Shown piece by piece: positions 1-18,577 of a stretch of DNA of 20,529 nucleotides. Numbering within the stretch: position 1 is the stretch's first letter; each line of letters opens with the position of its first letter. Below the pieces are notes generated by a model. That model did not search any database. It saw nothing but the letters and a program-made list of their open reading frames with translations, and was not told the origin of the DNA. The stretch is from Candidatus Krumholzibacteriia bacterium (GTDB lineage: Bacteria > Krumholzibacteriota > Krumholzibacteriia > WVZY01). Location: assembly GCA_036478295.1 (NCBI GenBank), contig JAZGDW010000035.1, positions 1-20,529 on the forward strand, written 5' to 3'. Both the position numbers and the translations under genes were made by a program.

Positions 1-1883
1 GTATCGGCGGCCCCCGGAGGGATGGTGCGTGCATAGAGAACCGTGCGGGTCGCCCAGGCGTTGCGTTTATTGATGAGGTTGCCGTGCTCGTCCAACAAAT
101 AGCCGCGGTAAAAGTGCGCTCCTTCATCAACCGGGCCGTTGCCGTCCACCGCTTCGATCCTTCCACTCCAAAAGACGACTTTCCCATTTTCGTCAGTAGC
201 TTTCAGCTCCAACCAGATATCGAACGCATCAATGGTCCCCGCCGGAAATCGGTGTCCGACGTCCCTCGTACGAACCACAACGTCGATACGAACCTCTTCA
301 CCCCGCTGGACGGTTGCATGCGCTCGGTCGACCGGAGCGACGGTCTTCGTGATATCCGTCACACTGCCGGACGGGCCGCGCCGCTCGTCCGTTTCACCCA
401 CCATGCTGAACATGGAAGCACGACCCGTAACACCGGCCTGGCCGGTACGCTGGATCGGCGTTGCCGGGGCCAGCGCAAAGACGTCTACGGTGACTTTGTC
501 AGCCTGGAGGAATTCAGTAACAGTCTCGAGCTGTTTATCATGCTTGTTGACGAAGGGGAGCGCCGTGTTGGCCGCAGGAAAACGATGACTGTGGACGCTG
601 CCGTTAATATTCCCCGCATCCCGGGACGGGACCAGCGGCATGTGACAGTCATTACATTGCTTCGGCGCTGCAGGATAATAGAAGGAAAGGGCCCCCTGGT
701 GGGACACGCCACTGGATTGCCACTGATCATACTCGTCAAATCCCCGGAACCAGCGAAAATTGTTGACCGGTTCGTCGAGGTGTACCTTGTGACAGGTCGA
801 GCAAAACTCGGCCTTGTTCTGACGATGGAATGGCTTCAAGAAGCTGTTCTTGTGGGGTTGTGGATCCAGCCGTATCAGGTAATTATGGAGGCTGCGGATG
901 ATGGGATTGTCGCTGGCGGCAATTCGGTGCAGGGGCGGATACTTGATAACGTATCCATTGTTGCCCATCGTATCCTTGACCTTTTCGATGGAGTGACACC
1001 CCGTGCAAGCAAGCCCCGCTTGTGCTGCAGGTGTGTGGACGTTTTCCCGGATGGGCCGGTCCATCACCCCGTTGAGCAGGACGGCCAGATCATGGCACCC
1101 GCCGCACCATTTGGACGGTTGAATCCCGTTGACATCCTGCATGTACGTAATCGCCTTGCGGTACCATTGATTATTGAAGGAGGCAAAATGGTGAGCTGAT
1201 TCATTCCACTGCTCGTAGATGTCCGGGTGGCATCCACTCGCAGCGCAGGTTTCAGAGGTCAAAAAGAAGTCTGTTGGAATGAGATCACCCGAGTACGTCT
1301 CAACCGAAGCGGGGAAGAACGGCCCACCCGTGCCCCCGCCTTCCTCATACATGCTGGTCGGAGGAGAAAGTGGATTCCGAATGAGATAGTCCGGATTGGG
1401 ACGGTAATGCTGGATGATCGTTGCAACAACAGGAAAAAGAATCGCAACGACCAGGACGATCCCGGCTGCCCGTGCCGTCCGTTGGTATACGGAATGCGAA
1501 GACTCCGTTCTCGCAGAAGCCTGTCGCCGCGCGGCCAGGGTGAGTAGATGCCCGACCAACAGAATCGTACCAAGTGTCACACTGACAATGTGGACAACCA
1601 GTAGCCAGCGATTCGGCGTCGTCGCCCCCACAACCATCAAGTATCCGCCGGAGGCGACGCCGATGGCGAGACAGACGACGCTTGCCCTGCCAAGGGGTGA
1701 CAGGTGTGTGAAACGTCCCCGCAAAAATCCTATAGCCGGTATTACCAGCCCAACGCCAAGAAGAACGTGAATAAACACGTTGCCTATATAGAACAGCGTT
1801 GGATCCCCAAAGCTGACAAGATACGCGCTGTTGAGTAACAGGAGGAAGAACCCATACAGCAATAGCTTTGTCCGTACCGTCAT
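1..1883 (-). CDS. Membrane-anchored pentaheme c-type cytochrome (cytochrome c554/c552-like multiheme domain) with N-terminal multi-TM domain; 3' end truncated by window
   Basis: Absent from the ORF track because there is no stop codon in the window; translated by hand. ATG at 1883 gives MTVRTKLLLYGFFLLLLNSAYLVSFGDPTLFYIGNVFIHVLLG... and stays open to base 1 (...NAWATRTVLYARTIPPGAAD). It has about 5 hydrophobic segments, then CAASGCH, CGGCH, CTGCH, CSTCH and CNDCH, plus WNESAH, HSHRFPAAN and VGHRFPAG motifs. It is collinear with the paralog at 11443-13542. Confidence 0.9.
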   Translation of the reverse strand, partial: MTVRTKLLLYGFFLLLLNSAYLVSFGDPTLFYIGNVFIHVLLGVGLVIPAIGFLRGRFTHLSPLGRASVVCLAIGVASGGYLMVVGATTPNRWLLVVHIVSVTLGTILLVGHLLTLAARRQASARTESSHSVYQRTARAAGIVLVVAILFPVVATIIQHYRPNPDYLIRNPLSPPTSMYEEGGGTGGPFFPASVETYSGDLIPTDFFLTSETCAASGCHPDIYEQWNESAHHFASFNNQWYRKAITYMQDVNGIQPSKWCGGCHDLAVLLNGVMDRPIRENVHTPAAQAGLACTGCHSIEKVKDTMGNNGYVIKYPPLHRIAASDNPIIRSLHNYLIRLDPQPHKNSFLKPFHRQNKAEFCSTCHKVHLDEPVNNFRWFRGFDEYDQWQSSGVSHQGALSFYYPAAPKQCNDCHMPLVPSRDAGNINGSVHSHRFPAANTALPFVNKHDKQLETVTEFLQADKVTVDVFALAPATPIQRTGQAGVTGRASMFSMVGETDERRGPSGSVTDITKTVAPVDRAHATVQRGEEVRIDVVVRTRDVGHRFPAGTIDAFDIWLELKATDENGKVVFWSGRIEAVDGNGPVDEGAHFYRGYLLDEHGNLINKRNAWATRTVLYARTIPPGAAD

Positions 1884-1928
1884 TCTCGGATACTCGTTTC
1901 AGGGGTTGATCAAAGCGTGTGAAGTGCG

Positions 1929-1956
1929 AAAACCGACCCAAAGGTAACGGTCGGCT
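1929..1956 (-). other. Stem-loop in the leader of the cytochrome gene
   Basis: The - strand reads AGCCGACC-GTTACCTTTG-GGTCGGTT-TT: an 8-bp stem with one G-U pair, followed by a short U run. It lies just downstream of the putative -10 element. Confidence 0.4.
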
Positions 1957-1964
1957 ACGCACAT

Positions 1965-1973
1965 ATTATATCA
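1965..1973 (-). promoter_or_regulatory. Extended -10 promoter element (TGnTATAAT) for the cytochrome gene
   Basis: The - strand reads TGATATAAT in an AT-rich patch about 80 nt upstream of ATG 1883. There is no good -35 at 17-bp spacing. The same 11-mer occurs at 13756-13766. Confidence 0.6.
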
Positions 1974-2076
1974 TATTTATGGCGCTATTGTACTTCAATC
2001 TGGGGAGTTCAGGGTCCAACCCGTGTGCCGACGCAATATGGAAGGTCGTGGAGACGATACCTGCACACTGACATGG

Positions 2077-5000
2077 CTACCGCGTCCGCACCAGTCGCGT
2101 GTTGAATTGGCGCCGGTAGGCCCGGGTCTTCTCGTTGTCCGGGTAGTGCTCGTTTGGGCCGTACGGATACCCGCTCATGGCGTGGAAGGGAAGCGGCTCG
2201 ACAGTGTCGGGATAGCCCGTGTAGAGGTCCATGTCCTTGCAGAAGCTGTCGGTCTTCAGGATGAAGGTACGGCGCTGGCCCTCCGGCACAGGTCCGAAAG
2301 CGTCGGCCGGGAAGCGCAACGTCAATTCGTCGCCGTGCTGCATGATGACGTAACAGTCATCGGCTTCCCCGACGAGTTCGGTGACCGCGCCGTAGCGGGT
2401 GTACTGTCCCGCCATCAACTTCCACGATGTGGCAGTATCGATGTTGTCGTAGTCGCTCAAAAGCGGGTGCCGGCCGTCGGGCGAATACTCGCGGGGATAC
2501 CCACGGAAGTGGAGGTCGGCGCTGCGCGCCGGCGCTTCGCTAAGCGTAAGCCCCGCGTCGTCGAGATGCTCCGCCAGAAAGACCCGGTCCCAGTAAAGTT
2601 CCATGTTGCTCGAGATGCGGATGTGCCGGTCACCGCTGCGGATCTTGCCGGTGACATCCAGCGTCATCATGTGCTGGATGCCCGCGGGGTAGCCCACCTC
2701 GTGAAACACCTCTGTCCACGCGCCGTCGCGGAGCACGTGGATGCTTGGTGCTTTGGCCGACTTGCCGGCCTGGGCCGCAGCGTAGTTTGTAGACGAATAG
2801 CCGTACTCCACCCAACCGTACAGAAAGAGTATCAAGCGGCGCCCGGGCGCCAGTTTCGCCAGGCGGTCGCCGAAGTCCAGTTCGACGAAATGATCGTCGG
2901 CGAGCCCCATGAAGTGGCCACCTACGCGGGTCGCACCGGCGCAGCGTCGATCGATGCGAAGCAGTTCATCGGTGACGTCGACACCCCGATTGTCTTCTGC
3001 GCGCACCGGGTCAATGGATTGCTCGAAACAGAACACCTCGGGTGCCGGCGGCGCTGTGCCGACCGCCATCATTTCATGGGGATAGACCTCCGTCCCCGCT
3101 GGGTGGTCCACCGCGATCAGCTTGGCCTCGTCGAAGTACGTCACCTCCTCGAGCGGGGTCAGGCATTGCAGGATGTACTCGCCATCTCGCGTCTCGAGAC
3201 GCGGGATGCGAAGATATTCCGTCGGGTCCGGCGGGGCGTAACTGCCCGGCGCCAGAAAATAACCCAATCCACCCACGCCGCCGAAATCGGCGACGAACTC
3301 GAACCTCGAACCGTTCCACGCGAAAAGGTAGGGACACGAAGACGTCTTGCGTTGCACTTCGGTCACCTCCAGCACCTGGTCGGCCGCAACCTCGAGCTCG
3401 GCCTGCAGGACGCCGTCGGGCCAGACGATCCGCAGCCAGTCGATCTTGGGGTTGTCTCCGAGGCCGGCGTGGACTCTCGCGGGCGACATGGCCACCGGAC
3501 CCGAGTTCCCGCCTACCAGGAACTGTTGAAAGACAGCGCCGGTCTTGATCTCTACCCGGGCTCCGATCGCCCAACTGTTGGACCGGGCCTTGCGGTCCCG
3601 CTCGCGGGTGCCGCGCAGGTCCAGCTCGATCCAGTGCCCGCCGGGTGTGGCGTTGACGATGAGCAGCGGCTCACTGCCCATCGGAGCCAGAAGAATGTCG
3701 CATTTCCCATCGCCGGTGAAGTCCGCCACGACACAGCTGGCGTCTCCCTCCGTGCGAATTGCATCTAGCAGATTCCCGGGATCGATCTCGGCGGTGTTGA
3801 GGAACCGCTGGCGGGGCCAATCATTGATAAGTACCGCGGGCCCGCGGCTGCCGTCGCGCCGCAGCGCGTCGGCAATCACGATGTCCAGATCACCGTCGTT
3901 GTCCATGTCGGCGAACTGTCCCCCGGTACCACCCAGCCGGCCGTGCTGGTCGGCAAAACTCTGTTCGATCTCAAAGGCGAACCTGCCGCCGTTGACCCAT
4001 AGTTCAAGACCCCGCTCGGAGAAGACGAGCAGGTCCCGGTCCCCGTCCTTGTCGGGATCGCCGGACGTCGCGCCGACCACCCCGCGCGTGGCGAGACCCG
4101 TGGCCGCTTCATCGAGGATACGAAACTCGCCGACCCGGTCGTTCACCCAGGGTACCGGTGGGGCGTCGCCGGCAGGGAAGACCACCAGGTCCAGGTCGCG
4201 GTCGCTGTCGAAATCGTCGTAGACAACGGCGGCAACCGGCGTAGTGGCCAGCGCCAGTCCCAACCTGGCCGCGACGTCGGTGTATGAGTCGTCCCCGTTA
4301 CTATTGTAGATGCTGCTCGCCGCAGGAACGCTACCGGCGAGGACCGGCACGCCGCCTTCGGCGAGGCGGAACGCCAGAAAGTCCAGATCCCCATCGCTAT
4401 CGAGGTCGACGAGCCGGGCACATTGGGTCAGGGTCCCGGGGCCGGCGAGGCCCGCGAATTGCCCCGAAGCAAAGCGGCCCTGCCCGTCGTTCACGAAGAC
4501 CCGGTCGGAGTCGGTGCACCCGAGCCACAGATCGAGATCGCCGTCATTGTCGATATCACCGAAACAAGGGGAGACCCCTTGCCGGGCAAGCTGCTGGACC
4601 TGCGAGAAACGTCCGGCGCCGTCGTTCAGCCACAGGACCGTTTCTCCCTGCTCTCCCGACGCCGTAAGACACAAGTCGAGGTCCCCGTCGTTATCGATGT
4701 CACCCACAGCCATACCCGGCAGGTCCACGGACCCCCCGGCCCAGCTCCAGGACGCCGACCGTGCGTTCAAACGAATGATGTCGGGGGACAGGACGATCCG
4801 CCGGGTGGATTCCGGCGCCGCCAGCGGAAGGTTGTTGGGCCCGAGTACCCGGTAGTATTTGCCCACCGTCCCGTAGATTTTCTGCACGACGAAGCTCCCG
4901 CTGGCCAACTCGGCTGCGTTGAGCTCTCCGAAGCGCGCGAAGAGTTTGGCGGCCTCCTGCCGCCGGTCCGTGCGCTGATACTGGAGTGCAAGGCGGTAGA

Positions 5001-5550
5001 CGGCGGAGATGAAACCGCCGTCGAGGGCAACGACCTTCTCGAGCATCTCTGCACCCTCGTCGTCCCGTCCCAGGGCAAGAAGGGTCTCGGCGTACTTGTA
5101 GGCCACGTAGGGGTCGTCGCGATCACCCCGGTAGACGGCGTGAAAATGCTCCAGGGCTTCCGTGTTCTCCCCAATGTGCTGGAGGTAGAGGCCCAGACAA
5201 AAGTGAGCGGGGAGGTGACCGGGATCGGATGCGAGGATCGCGTCGAAGACGTCGCGCGTTCTGTTGGGGTCCTCGTGTTCGCCCTCCTGGCCTTGCATGT
5301 TCAGGTACGCCAGTCCGAGGTTGAAGCGTGCGGCAACCCAGTCGGGTGCGAGCCGCACGACTTCTTCGAAAGCTGCGGCCGCCTCGCCATACTTGTACTG
5401 CTCCATGAGCCCGCCTCCGCGGTTGAACTCGGCCAACGCCTTGGCGTATGCCGCCGATTTCACGGGCGAGAGCTTCTTTGGCTCGTCCCCGCCGCAACCC
5501 GCAAGAACGGCAAGAATCGCAATCAAAACCGGCGCTATGATTCTTCCCAT
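2077..5550 (-). CDS. Lipoprotein: TPR repeats + FG-GAP/VCBS beta-propeller + ASPIC/UnbV domain + uncharacterised C-terminal domain (CRTAC1-like fusion)
   Basis: 1157 aa with an AAGGAG RBS and lipobox LAG-C19. TPR-like helices (AARFNLGLAYL, AHFCLGLYLQH) are followed by seven DxDxDGxxD-type motifs (GDIDNDGDLDL x2, DLDSDGDLDF, DFDSDRDLDL, DPDKDGDRDL, DMDNDGDLDI, DFTGDGKCDI). The UnbV signature (SNSWAIGARVEI...HAGLG...IVWPDG) precedes a ~420-aa extension starting SSCPYLFAWNG. Confidence 0.9.
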   Translation of the reverse strand: MGRIIAPVLIAILAVLAGCGGDEPKKLSPVKSAAYAKALAEFNRGGGLMEQYKYGEAAAAFEEVVRLAPDWVAARFNLGLAYLNMQGQEGEHEDPNRTRDVFDAILASDPGHLPAHFCLGLYLQHIGENTEALEHFHAVYRGDRDDPYVAYKYAETLLALGRDDEGAEMLEKVVALDGGFISAVYRLALQYQRTDRRQEAAKLFARFGELNAAELASGSFVVQKIYGTVGKYYRVLGPNNLPLAAPESTRRIVLSPDIIRLNARSASWSWAGGSVDLPGMAVGDIDNDGDLDLCLTASGEQGETVLWLNDGAGRFSQVQQLARQGVSPCFGDIDNDGDLDLWLGCTDSDRVFVNDGQGRFASGQFAGLAGPGTLTQCARLVDLDSDGDLDFLAFRLAEGGVPVLAGSVPAASSIYNSNGDDSYTDVAARLGLALATTPVAAVVYDDFDSDRDLDLVVFPAGDAPPVPWVNDRVGEFRILDEAATGLATRGVVGATSGDPDKDGDRDLLVFSERGLELWVNGGRFAFEIEQSFADQHGRLGGTGGQFADMDNDGDLDIVIADALRRDGSRGPAVLINDWPRQRFLNTAEIDPGNLLDAIRTEGDASCVVADFTGDGKCDILLAPMGSEPLLIVNATPGGHWIELDLRGTRERDRKARSNSWAIGARVEIKTGAVFQQFLVGGNSGPVAMSPARVHAGLGDNPKIDWLRIVWPDGVLQAELEVAADQVLEVTEVQRKTSSCPYLFAWNGSRFEFVADFGGVGGLGYFLAPGSYAPPDPTEYLRIPRLETRDGEYILQCLTPLEEVTYFDEAKLIAVDHPAGTEVYPHEMMAVGTAPPAPEVFCFEQSIDPVRAEDNRGVDVTDELLRIDRRCAGATRVGGHFMGLADDHFVELDFGDRLAKLAPGRRLILFLYGWVEYGYSSTNYAAAQAGKSAKAPSIHVLRDGAWTEVFHEVGYPAGIQHMMTLDVTGKIRSGDRHIRISSNMELYWDRVFLAEHLDDAGLTLSEAPARSADLHFRGYPREYSPDGRHPLLSDYDNIDTATSWKLMAGQYTRYGAVTELVGEADDCYVIMQHGDELTLRFPADAFGPVPEGQRRTFILKTDSFCKDMDLYTGYPDTVEPLPFHAMSGYPYGPNEHYPDNEKTRAYRRQFNTRLVRTR

Positions 5551-6545
5551 TCGAGTCTCCTTTTGGCTTCGCGAATGGCGCGGCTTGTCATCTCTGTATC
5601 CAGGTTCGTTTCACCCGTCCATTGACCGGGCGCGAAGAACGTCTTGCGGTAGACCGAATAGGCTTCGGTGCGAAGGTGGGCGGGCATGTGGTGACCGGTG
5701 CGTACTTTCCGCTCGTGGCGGAGAGCCGTAATATCAATCGGAGCCACGACGATCTTGGCACCCGCTCCGGGGTCTGCCTGGGCGAGGATGCGACCGTCGA
5801 AGTCCACAATCATGCTTCCTCCCGGCCACGAGAACGGTGGGTAATTCGAGAGGCTGGCCGCTTGATTGGCGCCAACGACGTAGGCGATGTTCTCCAGGGC
5901 GCGACACCGGTTTACGATCGTCCACCAGTCCATGGGTGTCGTCGCGCCCCACGGATCCATATAGGCGGAAACCCGGATTAACACCTCCGCGCCGCTGGCG
6001 GCGAGCTGGCGCAAGACCTCGGGGAAAAGCCAGTCGTAACAGATTGCGACGCCGAGGCGACCGATCGGTGTCGAGGCAACCGGGAAGAGTTCCTCGTCGT
6101 AACCCTCCAGATCGTGCGGACTCGAGTGGACCTCCCACGGGATCCACGGATTGACTTTCCTGTACCGGGTCAGGAGCCCTTCCGGGCCGATGAGGCACGT
6201 CGTATTGAAAACACTGCCCGGCCATTTGGGATCCTCTTCCAGAAAGGTGCCGGTCTGGATGTACACGCCAAGTTCCTTGGCTACCTTCTCGTACTGCTCT
6301 GTATGTTCGTTTGGAACGGGGACCGTCAGATGGCGGCGTAATTCCTCGGATGTGGGGTAGATTGGAGCGGCGTGTGCGAACTCGGGAAAAACAATTAGTT
6401 TTACCGGCAAAAAGGGCGAGTAACCGTCGACGGCCATTCGGACCATACCGATCATGTGGGTAACACGCTCACCGATTTGGTCTCGCCGGGCGGGATTGGG
6501 AAGATCGATCTGGCAGGCGGCGGCGCTGTAGCGAAGAGGGTTCAT
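5535..6545 (-). CDS. Nitrilase-family carbon-nitrogen hydrolase (amidase-like)
   Basis: Glu-Lys-Cys triad motifs VFPEF, YRKVNPW and ICYDW, plus RALENIAYVVGAN and GGSMIVDFDG. Start placed at ATG 6545 (MNPLRY; GGGGAG upstream) rather than 6632, which would overlap the GT gene. The stop overlaps the next gene's start by 16 nt. Confidence 0.9.
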   Translation of the reverse strand: MNPLRYSAAACQIDLPNPARRDQIGERVTHMIGMVRMAVDGYSPFLPVKLIVFPEFAHAAPIYPTSEELRRHLTVPVPNEHTEQYEKVAKELGVYIQTGTFLEEDPKWPGSVFNTTCLIGPEGLLTRYRKVNPWIPWEVHSSPHDLEGYDEELFPVASTPIGRLGVAICYDWLFPEVLRQLAASGAEVLIRVSAYMDPWGATTPMDWWTIVNRCRALENIAYVVGANQAASLSNYPPFSWPGGSMIVDFDGRILAQADPGAGAKIVVAPIDITALRHERKVRTGHHMPAHLRTEAYSVYRKTFFAPGQWTGETNLDTEMTSRAIREAKRRLEWEES

Positions 6546-6577
6546 TGGGTCACTGCTCCCCAGTTGGTTATGGCCGG

Positions 6578-7774
6578 TCAGGCTCCGGCGCAAATTACGC
6601 TCTGACCGGACGGTCGCGAATGATTCTCCCACAAGTCACGATAAAGCGCCTGATGTTGATCCGCAATCACAGAAAGTTCGAAGTATTGCAGGGCGTGCCG
6701 GCGAGCCTCCTCAGCCAACCGTGTTCGCAGAGGCAGATCGTCCAGGAGCCGCAAGACCGTACTCGCCAATAAACGCGGTCGCCGTGCCGGAAAGCACAAC
6801 CCGGTACGTTCGTGTTCGACGACTTCGCAACTGCCGACGTTGTCCGCGCAAGCGATCGGCACTCCGAGGAGCGCCGCCTCGACCAAAACGCGTGGAATGC
6901 CTTCTCGATAAAACGACGGAAAAACCAGGACATCCGAACAGGCGAGCAATTCCGGAATCTCGGCTCTCTCGCCGAGCCAGATGACCTGCTGGCGCAAGCG
7001 ATCTACCTCTCGCCGGCTGAGGCGATCGACCGCCTCAGGATCCAGGCCGCCAACTGCCACGATCTGCACGTTCGGTCTCCCGGCCCGGATGAACGGCACC
7101 GCGTCGAGCAAGTCAACGATGCCTTTCGAACGTATCAACCGGCTGACGAGTGTGACAACGGGCGCCTGGCCATCGAGTCCAAAATTCCTCCGTGTTGCGA
7201 CTCGCTTCCCGGGCGACACCACGTCTCTATTGAAGCGTGAGGCACATACTCCCGAGCCACGAATTAGATGGCTGCGAGCATGGTTGACGACATCAAGCCG
7301 GCAGAACCGATCACGATCATCGGCATTCTGAAAAACTGTACGATCGCTGAGCCGACAGGCGAGCCGGTGCAGGTGAAGGTAAACCCATCGGCGCCAGCGT
7401 ACTTGCAAGGAATGATAAGTGAAGAGTCCACCGAGGCCCGGCAGGGTTGCCAGGACGACTGGAACACCCTCGAGGCGCGCCGCAATCCTCCCAACTACCG
7501 ATGGCTTGGTGTCGAAGCAATGAACAATCTGTGGCCGCAGCCGGCGAATACGAGAGCGTAGCGAAAGAACAGCCTGCAAATCGGAACCCAGATCGAAGCG
7601 TCGCGACAGGGGATAGGATTCAAACCTGTATCCGAACTGTTCGAAACGTGCGGCGATGGATGCTTCGCTCCCGATCGCCGAGACTTCGAAATCATCTTCG
7701 AGCCGCTGGAGAAGCGGGATCCTCTTGTCGACGTCCGGCCCACCGATAATGCAGAGCCGCAATCGTTCAGTCAC
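6578..7774 (-). CDS. Glycosyltransferase family 4 (GT-B fold, CapM-like)
   Basis: Motifs HCFDTKP, LPGLG, VFQNADD, GSGV, SRLIRSKGI and the EX7E motif FPSFYREGIPRVLVEAA. Start placed at GTG 7774 (GGAG/GAGG upstream), overlapping the stop of the DUF692 gene (GTGACTGA). Confidence 0.9.
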   Translation of the reverse strand: MTERLRLCIIGGPDVDKRIPLLQRLEDDFEVSAIGSEASIAARFEQFGYRFESYPLSRRFDLGSDLQAVLSLRSRIRRLRPQIVHCFDTKPSVVGRIAARLEGVPVVLATLPGLGGLFTYHSLQVRWRRWVYLHLHRLACRLSDRTVFQNADDRDRFCRLDVVNHARSHLIRGSGVCASRFNRDVVSPGKRVATRRNFGLDGQAPVVTLVSRLIRSKGIVDLLDAVPFIRAGRPNVQIVAVGGLDPEAVDRLSRREVDRLRQQVIWLGERAEIPELLACSDVLVFPSFYREGIPRVLVEAALLGVPIACADNVGSCEVVEHERTGLCFPARRPRLLASTVLRLLDDLPLRTRLAEEARRHALQYFELSVIADQHQALYRDLWENHSRPSGQSVICAGA

Positions 7775-9555: not shown

Positions 9556-11399
9556 TGCCCGCCACCCCCGCGATCCTCGATACCGCCCCCCGTATCCCGC
9601 GTCACCACGACGATCTGGTCCACCGCGAGATCGATCGATTGCTGAATCGCCCCATCGGGCCAGGTAACCTGCAGGGAATCCACTCGGTCGATGGCTCCCA
9701 GACCAAACAGTTCCTCTCCCACGGCGTTCTGCGACAGGTACGAGGATCCGGCACCGACCTCCCGGATCGCAGCCTTGCCGCCTGCGACAAGCCGAAGTTT
9801 CGCGCCGAGGCCGAACCGGTTGCCCGATCCCCCCACCAGGCGCACCTTCAGCCAGTGGTTGGTTTTCACGCCCTCGTTTCTCAACAGCATCGCCGGTCCC
9901 CCGTTGACGACCACGAACACGTCGGGATCCCCATCGTTGTCAAAGTCCCCGACGGCGACGCCCCGCCCGACGTACTTTCGTTCGAAGACCTCGCCGCTGA
10001 CCGGACCGACGTCGAAGAATCCGTCTTGTGAACCCTTGTTCCAGAACAGCTGCATCCTCATCGGGACGAGCAACCTCGGATCTTCGTACTGCTGAAACGT
10101 GCTTCCGTTCGCGATGAAAAGATCCAACCACCCGTCGTTGTCGAAGTCCAGAAAAGCCGTCCCCCAACCGACATAATCGAGCGCAATCTGACCCAATCCA
10201 AACTGGTCGGCGACATCTGTGAAATTCATCGGAGCTCCACGCTTCACTCCGACCCCGGAGAACTCCGTGCGCATGTTGTTGTAGAGCGCGTTCTCCTGGG
10301 CGATCCAATGGGTCACGAAGAGGTCCAGATCCTCGTCCGCGTCCCAGTCCCCGATGGCCAGGCCCATTGCTCCCCGATAATCGGCCACCCACGCATTGTG
10401 ACTTATGTCTTCGAACGTCCCGTCCCCCTTGTTGTGGAATAACACATTATCCGAGATATCGTTGGCCACGTAGAGATCGAGCTTCCCGTCGTCATCGAAA
10501 TCACACCAGGACGCCGACAGGCTCCGGCCCGCGATGTTCTCTACGCCGGCCGACGCGGCCACCTCTTCGAAGGTTCCATTCCCGTTGTTGCGATAGAGCA
10601 GGTTGCGCTCCGGTTTGTATGTTGACGGATTTAACGAGGCGGGTATGAGAGCGTTATATTGTCGGGATTGTGTCTTCAGGTCCGCCGGGTGGTAGCGGTA
10701 CTTTACGTAGCCGCAGATGTAGAGGTCGAGATTACCGTCCCGGTTGTAATCTCCCCACGATGCTCCCGCCCAGTAACCACTTTGCCCCGCGATGCCGGCC
10801 GCATCCGATGCGTCCTCGAACGTCCCGTCCCCCCGGTTGCGATACAATACGTTCGTCCCGTAGTTGGTGACGATGAGGTCCAGAAACCCGTCGCCGTCAT
10901 AATCGCCCCACGCCGCCGCGTTGCCGCATCCACGATAGCCGACGCCAGCCCTGGCCGTCACGTCTTCGAACGTCCCATCCCCCCGGTTGCGATAGAGGAC
11001 GTTGTGTGCATCCGAAGCCGCGACTTCATCTGGAGACATCGTTAGCGGACCGGCCGCGTTGACCACGTAAAGGTCGAGCCAGCCGTCCCGGTCGTAGTCT
11101 CCCCATGCCGCCCCGGACCCCATGTCCTCCGGCAATTGCGTCGTTCTATGTCCCTGGAAATGGCGGAAATCAATCCCTGCTTGCGCAGAGACGTCCGAAA
11201 AAGTCACTTGGGGATGGCCCTGGGGAAGCGAGCGGGCCAGCTGGTCCGTCAGCCCCTCGATCTCCTCCCCGGGGATGTAGGGTTTCGGGGACGGTTTGAA
11301 AATTACCGCCGCGGCCACGATCAAAGCGAGAGACCCACTGACCGCAACCGTGAGGGCAATGCGCCGCTTGCGTCGAGACCAGCCAGCGGTCAAGACCAA
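9552..11399 (-). CDS. CRTAC1-family protein (FG-GAP/VCBS propeller + ASPIC/UnbV domain), membrane-anchored
   Basis: Basic stretch plus hydrophobic anchor, seven D[YFW][DN]xDGxxD-type motifs, and C-terminal GSSYLSQ...FGLG...VTWPDG. The start is uncertain: TTG 11399 or TTG 11393, the latter with better spacing to GAGG. Confidence 0.9.
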   Translation of the reverse strand: MVLTAGWSRRKRRIALTVAVSGSLALIVAAAVIFKPSPKPYIPGEEIEGLTDQLARSLPQGHPQVTFSDVSAQAGIDFRHFQGHRTTQLPEDMGSGAAWGDYDRDGWLDLYVVNAAGPLTMSPDEVAASDAHNVLYRNRGDGTFEDVTARAGVGYRGCGNAAAWGDYDGDGFLDLIVTNYGTNVLYRNRGDGTFEDASDAAGIAGQSGYWAGASWGDYNRDGNLDLYICGYVKYRYHPADLKTQSRQYNALIPASLNPSTYKPERNLLYRNNGNGTFEEVAASAGVENIAGRSLSASWCDFDDDGKLDLYVANDISDNVLFHNKGDGTFEDISHNAWVADYRGAMGLAIGDWDADEDLDLFVTHWIAQENALYNNMRTEFSGVGVKRGAPMNFTDVADQFGLGQIALDYVGWGTAFLDFDNDGWLDLFIANGSTFQQYEDPRLLVPMRMQLFWNKGSQDGFFDVGPVSGEVFERKYVGRGVAVGDFDNDGDPDVFVVVNGGPAMLLRNEGVKTNHWLKVRLVGGSGNRFGLGAKLRLVAGGKAAIREVGAGSSYLSQNAVGEELFGLGAIDRVDSLQVTWPDGAIQQSIDLAVDQIVVVTRDTGGGIEDRGGGGQ

Positions 11400-11442: not shown

Positions 11443-13542
11443 TTAGTCGGAGCGCACCTGAGCCTGCACGATCTTAATGCGCCCTGTGGCCTCCGATATC
11501 GTCGTCACGGGTGAGGTCAGCTCCGTTTCTTCTCCATACAGGAAAGTCAGGAGATACTGGTCGATCTTGCGGTACTGGAGCCGCGCTTCCACGTGCAGCA
11601 TCCCGCTCCCCGTCGGCGGGGCAGAGAATTGAAACGACTCTCCCTTGGGCAGTTCCGTTTCACTCGATCGCAAGGCGACCGGACAGTCGAACGCGTATTC
11701 GGCAACGTCGGAAAAGCCCGGAAACAGAGTCCGCTTGTAACGCACACCGACCATCTCCCAAAGGTTGTGGCGATCGATCAGATTTCCGTATTGGTCCACC
11801 GCTTCCGCCTTGAAGATGAACGACCCTGGTTCGATGAAGTGATTATCATCCCGGGTTCCCGAATTGTACACAACATTTCCCTCGTTGTCCTTCACCACGA
11901 CCTCCAACCAGGCCTGGATGATATCCAACGGCCCTGTTGGAAAGTCGTGTCCAACCTTGTTGTTTGTGATAACGACCTGGATCTCAACCTGCTCCCCCGC
12001 CGCGACCTGTTCCGGCACCTGCAGTTCTATCGGCACCGCCGGCCCCTGCGACCATTTGTCGGCGATTTCCGGTATCTCGATCTCGCCCCTCAGCCACTGC
12101 TTGACGAGGTCCGTGTGCAACTCTGCATCCGGGAGCTCGTGGAGCAACGGCATAAACTGGTTTGCTCCGAGAAAGCGGTGGCTCCGGTGCTTCTTGTCCT
12201 TCGAAGAACGATTGTAGTCCAGCGCATCCCCGCTTGCCGGCTCTTTGGAGTCCGCCACCAGCGGCATGTGGCACTCACGACACTCGATGGTTTTTGACGG
12301 GTCGCCCTCGGTGTTCCAGCGGCTCTTGCGCCAGTTATCGAACTGGTTCTGCAGCTGCACCCAACCGACCTTGTTGATTTCCTCATCGATGAACTGTTTG
12401 TGGCACGCCGCACAAAACTCCGGGCTCTTGAAGAGTCGGTGACTCAAGCTCTCGACGTGCTGCTTCGGATACGACCGGATGAGAAAATCCCGGAGGTACC
12501 TCGCCGTCTCACCTTCCTTCAGTTCGTAAGCGTAGCGCTCCGGTTGAACAATCGTATACGCCGCGTTTCCTTTGACATCCGTTTCCTTGATGGCATGACA
12601 GACAAGGCAGGAGATGCCCTCTTGATGGCCGGCAAGGCTGGTGAGGTCATCTACAAAGATATTCTTTGTCCCGGAAAAGAGCGATATTGGATCGTGACAC
12701 CCTCCGCAATAGCGGGTGGATTCCGGCCCATTTTGTTCTGCCATCACGGACTGCACTTTCTGAAAGGCCGCGTCCATCGCGGAGTAGCGGTGGGCGCTCG
12801 GCTCCCACTCTTTCAGGATCTCTTCGTGGCAGCCCGACGTCCCGCACGAGCGGGAACCGGACAGAGAGCGGTCGTCGAGCGCCCCGCCCGTCGACGTTTG
12901 AGCGAGGCTGGGCATGAAGGGACGGTCCTCCCCGTGAGTGAAGTTGTAGTCTTGCGGAAAGTCATTGCGAAACTCCACCGGCTCATAGGCGTACATCCAC
13001 AGCGCCGTTACCGCAAAGAGGGCAACCGCCACACCCAGGCTTCCCCACCCGAACACGCGCACGGCGGCCACAACCTGCGCGACTCTCTCGTTGTCCTTGA
13101 GCCTCCAGTTTCTGAGCAACAACGTGAACACGTGCGGCAACGCAAACGCGATCAACGCGAACGTGCTGACGATATGCGTCGTATCCCACACGTAACTGAT
13201 CCGTGTCGCAAACAACGCCTGGAATGTCAGCACGATTCCAGATACCCCGCATACCAGTGTCGCCACCAGCGACAGATACCCCGTCATCTTGACGTGCGTC
13301 ATCGTCTGCCGGCGATAGACGAGCCAGTGGCGTATTTGATACCATGTATAGGGAAAGATGAAAATAAGTCCTGCCGCCGTGTGGACAAGAACCATGAACT
13401 GTATCGACAGGCTGAATGGCAGCAGATAGATAGCCAATCCCGTCAATGTCTCGAAGATCAGCAGTCCCATTACCAGAATCGCTGATATCGCCCGCCACTC
13501 ACGCGGTCGATCGATCTTCAGTCCGTTCCTCTTGTTGTTCAC
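11443..13542 (-). CDS. Membrane-anchored pentaheme c-type cytochrome with N-terminal multi-TM domain
   Basis: 699 aa. GTG start with a strong AAGGAGGAG RBS, about 5 TM segments, then CGTSGCH, CGGCH, CLVCH, CAACH and CRECH, plus WEPSAH, RSHRFLGAN and VGHDFPTG motifs. Confidence 0.92.
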   Translation of the reverse strand: MNNKRNGLKIDRPREWRAISAILVMGLLIFETLTGLAIYLLPFSLSIQFMVLVHTAAGLIFIFPYTWYQIRHWLVYRRQTMTHVKMTGYLSLVATLVCGVSGIVLTFQALFATRISYVWDTTHIVSTFALIAFALPHVFTLLLRNWRLKDNERVAQVVAAVRVFGWGSLGVAVALFAVTALWMYAYEPVEFRNDFPQDYNFTHGEDRPFMPSLAQTSTGGALDDRSLSGSRSCGTSGCHEEILKEWEPSAHRYSAMDAAFQKVQSVMAEQNGPESTRYCGGCHDPISLFSGTKNIFVDDLTSLAGHQEGISCLVCHAIKETDVKGNAAYTIVQPERYAYELKEGETARYLRDFLIRSYPKQHVESLSHRLFKSPEFCAACHKQFIDEEINKVGWVQLQNQFDNWRKSRWNTEGDPSKTIECRECHMPLVADSKEPASGDALDYNRSSKDKKHRSHRFLGANQFMPLLHELPDAELHTDLVKQWLRGEIEIPEIADKWSQGPAVPIELQVPEQVAAGEQVEIQVVITNNKVGHDFPTGPLDIIQAWLEVVVKDNEGNVVYNSGTRDDNHFIEPGSFIFKAEAVDQYGNLIDRHNLWEMVGVRYKRTLFPGFSDVAEYAFDCPVALRSSETELPKGESFQFSAPPTGSGMLHVEARLQYRKIDQYLLTFLYGEETELTSPVTTISEATGRIKIVQAQVRSD

Positions 13543-13806: not shown

Positions 13807-13820
13807 TTGACTTTTATCAA
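13807..13820. promoter_or_regulatory. FNR/CRP-family-like binding site
   Basis: TTGAC-TTTT-ATCAA is a 9/10 match to the FNR consensus TTGAT-N4-ATCAA. It is centred about 63 bp upstream of the inferred leftward start site. Confidence 0.5.
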
Positions 13821-14046: not shown

Positions 14047-14076
14047 TTGACGTAGGCGTGATTCAGCCGTCATACT
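14047..14076 (+). promoter_or_regulatory. Sigma70-type promoter of the rightward operon
   Basis: TTGACG (14047-14052), an 18-nt spacer, then CATACT (14071-14076), about 100 nt upstream of ATG 14178. Confidence 0.5.
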
Positions 14077-14177
14077 GATACCAAACCTGTCGCTCAAAGT
14101 CGCATATCTTGCGTACCCTGTGTCGGAGGTACAGCCCATCGAGGCGGTCCACACGTCGCAGACATGGGAGCGCGTCG

Positions 14178-15593
14178 ATGAAAAATCCGAAGAAATCTGC
14201 AAAACACCGGAGCACGAAGCGCCCGGTTGGGGCCAAGGGTGGCGGCCGGGGGGGGCGGCGCGTGCGGCTCCTCATCGCCGGCGTAATTGCGTGTGCTGCG
14301 GTGGTGGTTGGTCTCGTTCTCATGCTGCTTCCGAATGCGGCCGAGGATGCCCAACCGCAGGGCGGCGCCGAGGTGACGTCGGCCGGGCAGCCGGCGACGG
14401 ACCTGGCAATGAAGAACGAGACGTTCGAGGTGGCCCGCCAACTGATCGCGGATTTCCCGGAAAGCGCCTTTCCAATCGGGTTAATGGGAACCGTGCATAA
14501 TCAATTCGGCAACTCCAGTAAGGCGGAAAAGTGGTGGCTGAGGTGCCTCGAGCGGGACCCCAAGCGTGCCGATGTCTACGAGGTGCTGGCCGTCGCCTAC
14601 CTCAGAAAGGGTCAGTATGAGAAAGTCGCCGATTTGTTGCGCAAGGCGCAGGCGATCGTTCCGAATCTGCCAGGTTTGCATCGCCGTTATGCAGAAGCCC
14701 TGATGGAAATGGGAAAGCTGGACGAGGCACTGGCGGCGATGGAGAAAGAAGTGAAGGTCGCCCCTGACTTCAGCGATAACCACCTCGTCTTCGGCAAGAT
14801 ATACCTTCAGCGGAAAGAGTACGAGAAGGCGGTGGCAGCTTACACCAAAGCGCTCGAGATGCGACCCGGTGACGCGAAGTGTTACTACGGTCTGGCCACC
14901 GCCAGTCAAAGGCTGGGTCAAAGCGACAAGGCCAGGGAGTACATGGAAACATTCAGCAGACTAAGGGACGACGACGACAGGATCTCGACGACACGAAGAA
15001 TGACGACCGACCAGATGCGCCGGGCCGCTCCGATTCTGGCAGAAACGCTTTTGGATGTAGGCCGTGTGTACAATGGGCATCGACAAGTCCTGAAAGCGGA
15101 GGAGTGCTGGAAGCGGGCGGCAGTACTCGACACGACGAACACCGCTTGCCGGCTTTTGCTCGTAGAACTGTACAGACGCGCCAGACGCCGGCAGGAGGCG
15201 GTGGAGGTGGCTGAACAGCTCAGGAAAATCGATCCGAAGAACGCCTCGTATCACCAGGTTGCCGGCGTTGCGCTCGCCGAAATGAAGCGATTTGATGCCG
15301 CCGAGGTGGCTATACGAAAAGCAATCGAGCTTGCACCGGAGCACCCAGCGGGCTACCGGTCCCTGGTGGAGGTTCTCCTGCTCAGCAACCGCAAGCTCCC
15401 CGAGGCGAAGGTGCTTGCCCAGAAGGCCGTCGAATTGGCGCCGACGGCCTGGCACTATTCCTTGCTCGGCAAAGCGTGTTCCCGCAACCAGGACCACTCG
15501 GGCGCCCTTGCGGCGATGAAACGGGCCGCCGAGCTGGCGCCGGACAACGAGGACATCCGCAAAGCATACGAGAAGCTAAAGGAAACGAAATGA
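14178..15593 (+). CDS. Membrane-anchored tetratricopeptide repeat protein
   Basis: Start placed at ATG 14178 (GGGAG 7 nt upstream), giving 471 aa. Lys/Arg-rich N-terminus, one TM (LLIAGVIACAAVVVGLVLMLL), then roughly ten TPR-like units (e.g. AYTKALEMRPGDAKCYYGLA, KAIELAPEHPAGYRSL). Confidence 0.9.
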   Translation: MKNPKKSAKHRSTKRPVGAKGGGRGGRRVRLLIAGVIACAAVVVGLVLMLLPNAAEDAQPQGGAEVTSAGQPATDLAMKNETFEVARQLIADFPESAFPIGLMGTVHNQFGNSSKAEKWWLRCLERDPKRADVYEVLAVAYLRKGQYEKVADLLRKAQAIVPNLPGLHRRYAEALMEMGKLDEALAAMEKEVKVAPDFSDNHLVFGKIYLQRKEYEKAVAAYTKALEMRPGDAKCYYGLATASQRLGQSDKAREYMETFSRLRDDDDRISTTRRMTTDQMRRAAPILAETLLDVGRVYNGHRQVLKAEECWKRAAVLDTTNTACRLLLVELYRRARRRQEAVEVAEQLRKIDPKNASYHQVAGVALAEMKRFDAAEVAIRKAIELAPEHPAGYRSLVEVLLLSNRKLPEAKVLAQKAVELAPTAWHYSLLGKACSRNQDHSGALAAMKRAAELAPDNEDIRKAYEKLKETK

Positions 15594-17272
15594 GGACTGC
15601 CCGCGGTCGTGACATCAGGTCTTTGGTGAGCTGGTTCGCGGCCGCGGTGATGGCGTGCGCCTGCGCGGTTGCCCCAGCACGTGCGGACAGTCCGATTCAG
15701 CTTCGGGACGTGACCCGTTCGACGGGAATCACCTTCAAGCACACGGATGGCAGTGGCGGCAAGCGGTACATTCTCGAGGTGATGAGCGGCGGGGTGGCGC
15801 TGTTCGACTACGACCGAGACGGGGACGTCGACATCTACTTCCTCAACGGCGCCCCGCTCAAGGGAACGAAGACCGATGTGACGCCGACGAACGCACTCTA
15901 CCGCAATGATGGCGACTTCAAATTCACCGACGTGACGAACCAGGCCGGTGTGGGGGACACGGGGTTCGGACTCGGGGTCGCCGCCGGCGACTACGACAAC
16001 GACGGAGACCTGGATCTCTACGTCAACAACTACGGCCCCAACGTCCTGTACCGGAACAACGGCGACGGTACCTTCACCGACGTGACGAAGGAGGCAGGGG
16101 TGGCCAGCGGCCACCGGCTGGGCGCTGGAGCTAACTTCATCGACATTGAAGGGGACGGCGATCTGGATCTCTTCGCCGCCAACTATGTGGCCTGGTCCTA
16201 CGACGCCCACACCGAGCGTTACCTCGGGCCGTGGATGGTCTATCCGGGACCCCGCGATTATCTCAGAAGTTCCAATGTTCTTTTTCGCAACAATGGGGAC
16301 GGCACGTTTACGGACATCAGTGAAGCATCGGGTATCGCTTCGCACGTGGGAGCAGGGATGGGCACGGTCTGCGTCGACAGCGATAACGACGGCGACACCG
16401 ATATCATCGTCGCCAACGATGATTGGGGAAACTTCGTTTTTCAAAACGACGGCACGGGAAAGTTCACGGAGGTCGGGCTGATCAGCGGAATCGCGCACGA
16501 CCTGTCCGCCTCGGCACAATCGAGCATGGGCATCGCCTGCGGCGACTACAACAACGACGGCTGGCTGGACTTGCAGATGACGTCCTACCAGACCGAGTTG
16601 GCCACGCTTTACGAGAACCTGGGCGGCGGGCTCTTCAACGACGTGACGCGCGTGACCGGGGCGGGAGCGGGAACGCTCACCAACGTGACGTGGGGAAATG
16701 GCTTTGCTGACTTCGACAACGACGGCGACCGCGACCTGTTCATTGCCTGTGGGCACCTCAATGACAATGTCGAGAAATACACCGACCTGACGACGTACTA
16801 CGCCCGGAACATCCTCCTGATGAACACCGGCGACGGAAAGTTCGTAAACGTCTCGGACGAGTGCGGCGACGGCATGGACGTGAAACTAAGCAGCCGCGGG
16901 GCGGCCTTCGACGACCTGGACAACGACGGCGATATCGACGTGGTGATCCTGAACTCGAGACGCGAGCCCACCATCCTGAGAAACGACTCGGCCACGGGTA
17001 ATCACTGGATACAAATCCAGCTCGAGGGAGTGAAGAGTAACCGCGACGGCGTCGGGGCACACGTGACGGTGGTGGCCGGGGACCTGAAGCAGATGGACGA
17101 GGTTCACAGCGGCCAGGGCTACCAGAGTCACTTCGGTATGCGGCTGCACTTCGGCCTGGGCGGGCGCGACCGGATCGATCGCATCGAGATCCGGTGGATC
17201 GGCGGTGGTGTGGACGTGCTGGAGAACGTTGAGGTGGACCGGCTGCTGACCATCACCCAGAAAAAAGGGTGA
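15590..17272 (+). CDS. CRTAC1-family protein (FG-GAP/VCBS propeller + ASPIC/UnbV domain), secreted
   Basis: Start placed at ATG 15590 (ATGA overlap with the TPR stop), giving 560 aa. Signal peptide ending ARA/DSP, seven DxDxDGxxD-type motifs, and UnbV signature SNRDGVGAHV...GQGYQSH...LHFGLG...IEIRW. Confidence 0.92.
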   Translation: MRTARGRDIRSLVSWFAAAVMACACAVAPARADSPIQLRDVTRSTGITFKHTDGSGGKRYILEVMSGGVALFDYDRDGDVDIYFLNGAPLKGTKTDVTPTNALYRNDGDFKFTDVTNQAGVGDTGFGLGVAAGDYDNDGDLDLYVNNYGPNVLYRNNGDGTFTDVTKEAGVASGHRLGAGANFIDIEGDGDLDLFAANYVAWSYDAHTERYLGPWMVYPGPRDYLRSSNVLFRNNGDGTFTDISEASGIASHVGAGMGTVCVDSDNDGDTDIIVANDDWGNFVFQNDGTGKFTEVGLISGIAHDLSASAQSSMGIACGDYNNDGWLDLQMTSYQTELATLYENLGGGLFNDVTRVTGAGAGTLTNVTWGNGFADFDNDGDRDLFIACGHLNDNVEKYTDLTTYYARNILLMNTGDGKFVNVSDECGDGMDVKLSSRGAAFDDLDNDGDIDVVILNSRREPTILRNDSATGNHWIQIQLEGVKSNRDGVGAHVTVVAGDLKQMDEVHSGQGYQSHFGMRLHFGLGGRDRIDRIEIRWIGGGVDVLENVEVDRLLTITQKKG

Positions 17273-17347
17273 TACCGGCCCGGGTAGCTGGCGAGGCAAT
17301 AGTCCGGACGCGACTTCGTCTACATTCCAAACCCCAACACTTCGGTT

Positions 17348-18577
17348 ATGTCGTCTCGCACAAGAAAGCCGGTCATATTATTATGGGTTGTTATCTCGCT
17401 CGTTGTGGTAGCGGTGTTCCTGTTGCGAGGCAAACCGCCGACAACGGGCGTTCCCCTGGATTATCCGTGGGCGAGCGCCATTCCGGCGCAGTCTGTTCCC
17501 GAAGGCCTGGTGGGCATTCGGGCGAGCGACTGCGGTGCTTGCCACAAAGCCATCTATGCGGAGTGGCGGAAGAGCGCCCACGCCAGTGCACTCGTCGATC
17601 CCCAGTTCCAATTCGAGTGGGCGAAGGATGGGCACCTGTGGCTTTGTCTCAATTGCCATATTCCGTTGACCAACCAACAGATCTTGGTCGTGCGGGGTGT
17701 ACATGATGGGGATTTGCACCGGCCCATCGTCGAATCGAATCCCTCTTATGATAGCGAACTTGCGCAAGAGGGGATTACCTGTGCCGTCTGTCACGTCAGG
17801 GAGGGCGCCGTGCTCGGCCTCCGCGGCGACGGCGCAGCACCTCACCCGGTCAGAGTCGAGCCCGATATGCTGTCGTTCGAGGCCTGTCTGATCTGTCACA
17901 ACGCGCTAGGCCGATTCGGTGGCACGCTTGTGTGCAATTTCGACACGGGCGACGACTGGCGCCGCACCGGGCTTCCCGAGTCGGGCACGGACTGTGTACA
18001 CTGCCATATGCCGCGAGTTACGCGACCTGTCGCACAAGGAGCGGCTGCCAGGGACAGCCGGCGTCACGCCTGGTCCGGGGCGGGAATCCCGAAGTTCTTC
18101 GAAGACAGCTCGCTCGTAACGCCCCGAAGTGGCCTTGATATCGAGATCATTCCCGATCCGGAGGGATACCGTCCGGGAGAGAGGGGCCGGATCACGGTCA
18201 ACGTCGCCAACCGCCATGCGGGACATAGCGTACCCACGGGAGACGTGGAAAGGTTCGTGCTCATCATTCTGCGTCTCAAGAACGGAGCTCTGGACCGGAC
18301 GTACTGGGAGCACGAGGAAAGAATAGGCGAAGTGTGGGTCTGGTCACCGGAAGCGAAACAGATTTCCGACAATAGCCTTGCCTTTGGCGAGGAGCGCTTG
18401 TTGCAGTACGAGGTTGACATCCCGGGAGAGGTATCTTCCCTTGCATTCGAAGTCACGATAGAGAACCACCGCATGACGGTCGAGAACGCGACTGAAATGG
18501 GGTTGATGGGCAAATACCCGTTGAAACGTGAGGTTCTAAGATCATCCGTACCGCTCGTTGTGCGGACGGGTCGATGA
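17348..18577 (+). CDS. Pentaheme c-type cytochrome (c554/c552-like) with single N-terminal anchor
   Basis: 409 aa. One hydrophobic N-terminal segment, then CGACH, CLNCH, CAVCH, CLICH and CVHCH, plus WRKSAH and AGHSVPTG motifs shared with the two larger cytochromes. Confidence 0.9.
   Translation: MSSRTRKPVILLWVVISLVVVAVFLLRGKPPTTGVPLDYPWASAIPAQSVPEGLVGIRASDCGACHKAIYAEWRKSAHASALVDPQFQFEWAKDGHLWLCLNCHIPLTNQQILVVRGVHDGDLHRPIVESNPSYDSELAQEGITCAVCHVREGAVLGLRGDGAAPHPVRVEPDMLSFEACLICHNALGRFGGTLVCNFDTGDDWRRTGLPESGTDCVHCHMPRVTRPVAQGAAARDSRRHAWSGAGIPKFFEDSSLVTPRSGLDIEIIPDPEGYRPGERGRITVNVANRHAGHSVPTGDVERFVLIILRLKNGALDRTYWEHEERIGEVWVWSPEAKQISDNSLAFGEERLLQYEVDIPGEVSSLAFEVTIENHRMTVENATEMGLMGKYPLKREVLRSSVPLVVRTGR

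Follow-up and report, generated by a model that had tools for sequence, protein, structure and literature searches.

What does a CRTAC1-type protein do when its gene stands beside that of a multiheme cytochrome? The question is raised by a stretch of 20,529 nucleotides (nt), referred to below as the window, which is an entire contig (C246) of a 3.5-Mb Candidatus Krumholzibacteriia genome (91% complete). Genes for CRTAC1 proteins (an FG-GAP propeller with an ASPIC/UnbV domain), for cytochromes with five heme-c motifs and for tetratricopeptide repeat (TPR) proteins lie close together in it. No function of the bacterial CRTAC1/ASPIC-UnbV proteins turned up in the literature searched; UnbV has a role in enediyne clusters, and a literature search on UnbV and enediyne gave nothing. 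The preliminary description of the window recognized three equivalent triads of cytochrome, CRTAC1 and TPR, with a one-to-one pairing that persisted through a shuffled gene order. Only one of them, cytB-crtB-tprB (positions 13542-8668), is a complete conserved module, and the pairing is valid for this copy alone. In this module a membrane-anchored pentaheme cytochrome and its dedicated CRTAC1 protein likely form, as predicted here, a periplasmic redox enzyme that is supplied from the membrane and has not been described before.

The cytB-crtB-tprB module and its partner clades

The three genes lie on the minus strand. The cytB gene (11443..13542) encodes 699 amino acids (aa) with five transmembrane helices, one CX4CH and four CXXCH motifs, and an Ig-like C-terminal domain. 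The crtB gene (9552..11399) encodes a membrane-anchored CRTAC1 protein of 615 aa, with six DxDxDG motifs in its FG-GAP propeller and an ASPIC/UnbV domain. It overlaps by 4 nt with tprB (8668..9555), which encodes an anchored TPR protein of 295 aa. The best 80 of 581 genomic matches to cytB were examined. A crtB ortholog was present downstream of cytB in all 75 informative loci, directly adjacent in 71 and after one inserted gene in four (a six-bladed propeller in the one scanned); the remaining five loci had contig ends at most 267 bases from cytB. The matches were titled Gemmatimonadota, Bacteroidota, Rhodothermales, Planctomycetota, Marinimicrobia and Krumholzibacteriia, and among the matches listed the closest named relative was a Candidatus Krumholzibacteriia (82%). 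The TPR part was a gene of its own in 35 of the 80 loci and fused to the crtB C-terminus in 29, with one locus counted in both lists and 17 loci, mostly ending early, in neither.

The preliminary description had called for neighborhood statistics of ASPIC/UnbV against pentaheme genes, and the expected enrichment was found across the sampled groups for cytochromes of the B-type (after cytB) and of the related A-type (after cytA, at the left end of the window). In 41 evenly drawn Gemmatimonadetes genomes, the centre of the sample having been picked for its cytB, the 11 genomes with an A/B cytochrome all fell among the 16 with ASPIC/UnbV. An ASPIC match was located within approximately 3 kb downstream, on the same strand, for 15/15 informative cytochrome genes (18 matches, counted by hand as 16 genes, one at a contig end). 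The chance of such a downstream match was about 0.4% per gene in this sample, in which kin are not independent. Similarly, CRTAC1 was found beside the A/B cytochrome in 29/29 informative loci among the best 30 of a Planctomycetota class sample, and in 23 of 27 informative acidobacterial loci (29 examined, one unpublished genome left out). As a control, no CRTAC1 gene was seen near six genes of another pentaheme cytochrome of the same fold (five regions of 17-20 kb).

The association extended to the phylogeny of the CRTAC1 proteins. In a FastTree of 107 CRTAC1 domains, which sampled 26 of 72 B-partners and from which one gappy row was dropped, the partners of A-type cytochromes (18/18) formed one clade and those of B-type cytochromes (26/26) another, with a support of 100 each. 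The crtB protein belonged to the B-partner clade, whose members occur only downstream of B-type cytochromes; the other two CRTAC1 proteins of the window, fusA and crtC, were outside both clades. Seventeen positions were conserved differently between the two partner clades (for example, R85/D92/H364/W365/S433 in B against F/T/N/F/H in A). A comparison of cytochrome and CRTAC1 trees for co-divergence had been suggested; the distance correlation between cytB and crtB (rho 0.81, n=54, no control gene) was not counted as co-evolution.

Such a correlation is expected from linkage alone, and it would suit the explanation that adjacency is a by-product of co-transferred CRTAC1/TPR superclusters, with no direct partnership. 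CRTAC1 genes do cluster together in many loci, and hitch-hiking of this kind is true of the third copy in the window. Yet the order, strand and partner clade are constant across phyla and the co-presence holds at the genome level, so that for type B this explanation is already largely refuted, and in general it is highly improbable. The partner-specific clades, together with the fusion of TPR to either partner, strengthen the idea of a functional unit, which stands for the A- and B-type cytochromes from the neighborhood counts and falls as an argument from three copies. A functional partnership of cytB and crtB is very probable. That the two proteins form a physical complex is a somewhat less certain prediction, though still a probable one.

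Heme 2, the membrane domain and the proposed electron route

The cytochromes cytA, cytB and cytC of the window are all of the MccSep/ExtKL/5ZE8 pentaheme-Ig fold, with five heme-c motifs and an Ig-like domain with a GHxxPxG loop in each. Five CXXCH motifs are present in cytC only, as cytA and cytB have four CXXCH and one CX4CH; nor are these two merely anchored, since they start with a five-helix membrane domain. The best PDB profile match of both cytB and cytC was 5ZE8. For the cytB model (pLDDT 73), 5ZE8 (E 3e-6) was the sole Foldseek match with E ≤ 0.001. For cytC, the profile E-values were 2e-17 with 5ZE8 and 7e-13 with MccSep. The identity was 28% between cytA and cytB and approximately 24% between either of them and cytC, over part of the length only. 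At 50% identity and E ≤ 1e-30, the cytochrome relatives made 682 clusters, which include relatives not linked to CRTAC1. Another same-fold pentaheme cytochrome, of about 455 aa, which carries GHxIPxGSxE[ED]R and no heme-2 Cys and is not linked to CRTAC1, was observed in related genomes (L084-L095, L122-L126).

In MccSep, hemes 1, 3, 4 and 5 are bis-His ligated, heme 2 is His/Cys-ligated with Sec325 beside it, and heme 1 is the proposed electron entry (bioRxiv 10.1101/2025.11.18.688581, from the accessible part of the preprint). The region of MccSep C239 (C239/C240) corresponds to C196 in cytC and to Q396 in cytB. This position was Gln396 in 67/67 cytB-type sequences, Arg in 21/21 A-type sequences and Cys in 62/66 cytC-type sequences; a regular-expression search of the heme-2 position in 90 distant representatives, rough and with many mis-registered rows, found no Cys. 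The position of Sec325 is occupied by Pro in cytB, Thr in cytA and Asp in cytC (D299). Scores with the NF040886 model were 28-34 bits, for a cut-off of 250. A function of cytA and cytB as polysulfide reductases was rejected, the catalytic residues being absent. Common to the A- and B-types are a Lys, an Asn and a Trp, all three invariant, as well as an Asp that is conserved and lies two residues past the Sec position; the heme-2 pocket residues are Q396/D540 in cytB and R380/D552 in cytA. Four candidate distal His were retained in cytB (251, 362, 455 and 532). Because Gln396 (B) or Arg (A) replaces the Cys ligand, heme 2 of cytB is predicted to be open, or else ligated from elsewhere, the invariant Met267 being a candidate.

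In the membrane domain of the B-type cytochromes, H54, H72, H123 and H137 on helices 2 and 4 were invariant in 67/67 sequences. Four His on two helices in this arrangement are the pattern of cytochrome b. The membrane domain of cytB is therefore likely a di-heme cytochrome b, as judged from these residues.

We propose that the products of cytB, crtB and tprB would together be an oxidoreductase of the inner membrane that faces the periplasm. Its cytochrome would connect the quinone pool with an open heme site by electron transfer, and its CRTAC1 propeller would be the part that binds the substrate and presents it. Electrons from quinol would pass through two b hemes, held by H54/H123 near the periplasmic face and by H72/H137 near the cytoplasmic face, to c heme 1, then to hemes 3 and 4 and finally to heme 2, as in the route proposed for MccSep. 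Heme 2 would be five-coordinate or Met-ligated, in a polar pocket made of K382/N390/W394/Q396/D540, and the TPR protein would hold the two anchored subunits to each other like a clamp. The likelier direction would be the reduction of a substrate that is chelated or organic, because MccSep is a reductase and the sister clade of cytB occurs in iron-uptake operons (see below). We give the full model, that is, a quinone-linked chain, chemistry at heme 2 and a propeller acting as substrate-binding subunit, a probability of roughly 0.5.

It is also possible, with a clearly lower probability, that catalysis resides in the propeller itself, as an enzyme acting on amides, glycans or secondary metabolites, with the cytochrome serving only as its electron wire, as in propeller-plus-heme complexes such as hydrazine synthase. 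In non-anammox bacteria, CRTAC1 genes are placed between the alpha and the beta-gamma genes that resemble those of hydrazine synthase (PMC12758564, accessible part), and a hydrazine synthase alpha-like gene (PF18582) was found upstream of the cytB module in one locus (L037:2-1612). The search of 13 window proteins for homologs of hydrazine synthase alpha or beta/gamma was negative. The crtB model (pLDDT 88) had murine CRTAC1 as its best fold match, followed by integrins, GlcNAc lectins and aldos-2-ulose dehydratase. The last shows that enzymatic propellers built of the repeats seen in crtB exist, and the clade-specific polar residues include R85, D92, H364 and W365. The leading matches to CRTAC1, integrins and lectins speak against catalysis, however, as does the fact that residues common to all propeller clades are mostly the Asp and Gly of the repeats; with 5-6 DxDxDG motifs in each of the three CRTAC1 proteins of the window, Ca2+ binding may be inferred. 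The strongly conserved polar pocket at heme 2 points instead to chemistry on the cytochrome.

Relatives of cytB found on plasmids bear on the nature of the substrate. Six records of a plasmid collection matched cytB, of which four were opened. Shinella and Nitratiruptor had operons in the order imelysin, four-His membrane protein, pentaheme cytochrome and FTR1, with a ferritin gene in addition in Nitratiruptor; in Aeromonas, a fused form of 989 aa precedes FTR1 (for the three genera, L256:4221-9692, L257:3901-9372 and L258:4348-8156). In 3/3 of the genera opened, this sister clade (32% identity with cytB, probability 99.9) was beside FTR1, and two of them also had imelysin and a four-His membrane protein encoded by a gene of its own. 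The clade shares the GHxxPTGxxD loop with the cytB family. No description of the combination of imelysin, FTR1, multiheme cytochrome and DUF4405 was found in the literature searched, and these operons are apparently an undescribed EfeUOB-like iron-uptake variant, as read from gene content. On plasmid pACIX901 of Granulicella tundricola MP5ACTX9 (L255:5867-17323), a cytochrome::TPR fusion was found among three CRTAC1 genes, in a cluster that also contains a small cytochrome c, a TPR protein and a TonB-dependent receptor and lies beside GH88 and sugar porter genes. From the comparison of the imelysin-FTR1 operons with the CRTAC1 clusters, the same pentaheme chassis appears to take different periplasmic partners.

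The module could then serve the redox chemistry of iron or of a metal chelate for uptake, with CRTAC1 taking the place of imelysin as carrier of the metal or chelate. The imelysin-DUF4405-pentaheme-FTR1 operons and the shared GHxxPTGxxD loop suit this reading, as do the TonB-dependent receptor in Granulicella and the tie of imelysins and EfeUOB to iron uptake (PMC3143127, accessible part). It is opposed by the glycoside hydrolases and the sugar porter that adjoin the Granulicella cluster and by a negative tblastn search for FTR1 and imelysin in the fetched CRTAC1-linked loci and in this genome, and we consider it rather unlikely. Less likely still is a role of CRTAC1 and TPR as assembly, maturation or protective factors for the cytochrome. 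Some A-type cytochromes do lack an adjacent partner, and the TPRs weakly resemble CcmH/NrfG TPR models, below the threshold. These matches are generic and, with the NrfG model, far below the cut-off (16-30 bits, cut-off 306), the fold also occurs without CRTAC1 in the sister clade and in cytC, and partner-specific clades and a membrane anchor are better suited to a stable subunit.

Several observations weigh against the quinone-linked oxidoreductase with a substrate-binding propeller. In the cytB model, the heme region is of low confidence (pLDDT of approximately 45-70). No Pfam model for cytochrome b or DUF4405 matched the membrane domain; its alignment to the Shinella DUF4405 protein is weak (probability 19%, HMM E 1.5e-5 among eight sequences, with the four His in register), and the A-type keeps two of the four membrane His (the equivalents of H54 and H123). 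The negative search for FTR1 and imelysin in the fetched CRTAC1-linked loci and in this genome counts here as well. In the neighborhood counts, related genomes are kin and not independent, and the CRTAC1 tree is a FastTree with long-branch warnings. CRTAC1 was missing near 4 of 27 acidobacterial A-type loci and from 7 of 17 informative A-type metagenome loci, the latter from a low-GC lineage and partly redundant; these CRTAC1-free low-GC cytochromes are 63-80% identical to cytA and some are among its closest relatives. Moreover, only about 15 of 109 ASPIC matches in the Gemmatimonadetes sample follow such a cytochrome, most CRTAC1 genes having none.

A broader reading, which we put forward tentatively and consider rather less probable than the model for the module itself, is that CRTAC1/UnbV propellers would be swappable substrate-recognition subunits of a widespread and so far undescribed class of quinone-linked periplasmic heme enzymes, built on a b/c pentaheme chassis with a new, Cys- and Sec-free heme-2 site and retargeted by the partner, which would be one or another CRTAC1 clade here and imelysin with FTR1 in the iron-uptake operons. 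If true, this would give the bacterial CRTAC1 proteins a biochemical role for the first time. The family has been multiplied in Acidobacteriota, Planctomycetota, Gemmatimonadota and Bacteroidota (as many as 16 ASPIC/UnbV matches per genome in those searched). The cytochrome is common, with 35 of the 121 genomes in the Planctomycetota class sample, and its fixed, clade-specific partner gives a direct handle on CRTAC1 function. Granulicella tundricola MP5ACTX9 is a cultured carrier of a related cluster.

The other CRTAC1 and cytochrome genes of the window

All eight open reading frames of the preliminary description were present, with their coordinates and strands. At the N-terminus, every one of the eight proteins carries a hydrophobic segment, a signal or a lipobox (LAGC in fusA). 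Among the window proteins scanned, the three CRTAC1-type proteins exceeded the Pfam cut-offs for FG-GAP_3 and UnbV_ASPIC (PF07593), and Pfam likewise recovered two TPR proteins, the TPR within fusA and the three heme-c proteins. Genes for cytochrome c maturation and for two homologs of heme-copper oxidase subunit I are also present in the genome. On its other contigs there are six further CRTAC1-like reading frames (one a short fragment), with no multiheme neighbor. A promoter and terminator scan of the window was near chance level.

The first copy had been mis-paired. The cytA gene (3..1883, minus strand) is cut by the contig end; what remains is the 5' part (627 codons) of a membrane pentaheme cytochrome of the A-type. 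Its neighbor fusA (2077..5550, minus strand) encodes a lipoprotein of 1157 aa composed of TPR, CRTAC1 and a 420-aa C-terminal domain, and is not the usual partner of cytA. Full-length cytA relatives have about 950 aa with a TPR of their own at the C-terminus, and their usual 3' neighbor is a separate CRTAC1 gene (in G013 and in Gemmatimonadetes loci). A tblastn search of the genome did not find the missing C-terminus of cytA or a close CRTAC1 partner elsewhere in the assembly. Nine of 21 A-type metagenome loci had a downstream CRTAC1 gene (one fragmentary), seven had none at all, four were cut, and in one the sole CRTAC1 was an upstream fusA-type gene, as in the window; these counts cover the neighborhoods of the loci. 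With nine loci carrying a downstream CRTAC1 and seven without, the partner of the A-type appears to be usual but not obligatory in cis. The role of fusA as the cognate partner was rejected, as the order recurs in only one other locus (L137) and fusA belongs to a separate clade. We conclude that cytA is a truncated paralogous module.

A fusA-type gene was located near the cytB module in 21 of the 80 cytB loci. Its 420-aa C-terminal domain (residues 735-1157, window 2077-3345) is conserved; it had no Pfam family and no PDB match of note, and matched only unnamed Atlas clusters, one with 3032 members. Upstream, and overlapping fusA by 16 nt, is a CN-hydrolase gene of the nitrilase family (5535..6632, minus strand), whose product has the E/K/C motifs and no signal. 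This gene adjoins a fusA-type gene in four other genomes from two phyla. The nitrilase identity was 74-91% across these loci (L001/L119, L187, L078 and L080), far above that of fusA, which was only 33-39% across phyla; together with the adjacency, it points to a unit of nitrilase, fusA, TPR and CRTAC1 that is conserved. An MNIO/DUF692-family gene (PF05114) and a GT4 glycosyltransferase gene (6578-8594) separate tprB from the nitrilase gene in the window as an insertion; in L001/L119 tprB and the nitrilase gene adjoin each other.

On the plus strand, tprC (14178..15593) encodes an anchored TPR protein that passes PF23914 (71 for a cut-off of 42), as it does many generic TPR models, and crtC (15590..17272), overlapping it by 4 nt, a secreted CRTAC1. 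Their orthologs are directly 3' of fusA in two genomes, G013 (in the order nitrilase-fusA-TPR-CRTAC1) and G007, in which no cytC ortholog was found. The fusA, tprC and crtC genes would thus be cytochrome-free accessories of the same supercluster. A modules, B modules and fusA-type genes are often in one operon (L014, L019, L066 and L179), from which the window appears to be a permuted supercluster. Divergent from the cytB module in another locus was a gene for a lipoprotein with seven CXXCH (L057:5579-7768).

The third copy turned out to be a juxtaposition of tprC-crtC with a pair made of cytC (17348..18577, plus strand; 409 aa, a single-anchor pentaheme cytochrome of the MccSep/5ZE8 family) and a membrane histidine kinase gene (18599..19975, plus strand) that begins 21 nt past it. 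The crtC-cytC junction is not an assembly chimera, because contigs of two runs from one study bridge it (X1 record 7 and X2 record 14); a further run, X4, did not cover cytC, which does not count as evidence. A CRTAC1 gene was beside the cytC ortholog in 0 of 10 loci, and cytC was rejected as a CRTAC1-linked cytochrome. In two of these genomes, G017 (92% complete) and G026 (83% complete), neither of which had a PF07593 match, the cytC orthologs were 72-74% identical and directly preceded the same histidine kinase gene, the upstream side being a contig end in G026. The eight Bacteroidota-side orthologs had no adjacent CRTAC1, and the nearest ASPIC matches to cytC elsewhere were at 8 kb on the other strand (G502) and at 26 kb (G802). 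The juxtaposition looks lineage-specific, though the junction is real in related strains; the third copy is likely incidental and cytC an unrelated neighbor. The pairing of cytC with the kinase was observed in three genomes of one order (L118, L121), cytC being alone in Bacteroidota. Possibly, the Cys-ligated cytC, with D-x-E-R at the Sec loop, and the kinase form a sulfur or redox sensing pair.

Comparison with known systems

No description of the cytochrome-CRTAC1 pair was found in the literature searched, which included few subscription journals, and the homolog tables of the MccSep preprint could list such families. The accessible part of PMC3174227 draws no link between ASPIC/UnbV and a cytochrome. 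The closest published remark places CRTAC1 genes on the flanks of hydrazine-synthase-like ones (PMC12758564, accessible part).

The polysulfide reductase MccSep/ExtKL of Geobacter sulfurreducens (PDB 9WT8) has the same five c hemes, Ig-like domain, GHxxPxG loop and four distal His. It differs from all three cytochromes of the window in the catalytic loop, where none of them has Sec or Cys; cytA and cytB in addition lack the Cys of heme 2, which is retained in cytC. Moreover, cytA and cytB are membrane-bound through five helices, whereas MccSep forms a soluble tetramer for which the accessible part of the preprint describes no CRTAC1 partner. The low-potential pentaheme cytochrome c552 of Thermochromatium tepidum (5ZE8) and the PHC family of cable bacteria (PMC11976967, accessible part) share the fold. 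The 5ZE8 protein is soluble, has Cys where cytB has Gln and cytA has Arg, and is without membrane domain, TPR or CRTAC1. In the imelysin-FTR1 operons (Shinella sp. HZN7 pShin-02 and Nitratiruptor pNitYY0814), the homologous pentaheme cytochrome also has no heme-2 Cys and follows a four-His membrane protein. Unlike in cytB, the membrane part is encoded by a separate gene and the partners are imelysin and the FTR1 permease rather than CRTAC1 and TPR, with a role read from annotation and context. The CbcL-like inner-membrane b/c fusion cytochromes presumably also join a His-bearing membrane domain to a periplasmic multiheme part, with a different heme-c fold and heme count. Finally, crtB shares the FG-GAP propeller and ASPIC domain of murine CRTAC1 (PDB 9ETN; Foldseek E 1.8e-32, TM 0.67-0.75), from which it differs in being bacterial, membrane-anchored and tied to one cytochrome type.

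The folds are known, and by its residues at two defining positions the cytA/cytB cytochrome falls outside MccSep. What is new is that the CRTAC1 partners fall into two clades specific to their cytochrome type, that the heme-2 residues are substituted, that a sister clade is linked to FTR1 and that the third copy has been rejected; the recently solved MccSep fold is extended to a different heme-2 chemistry.

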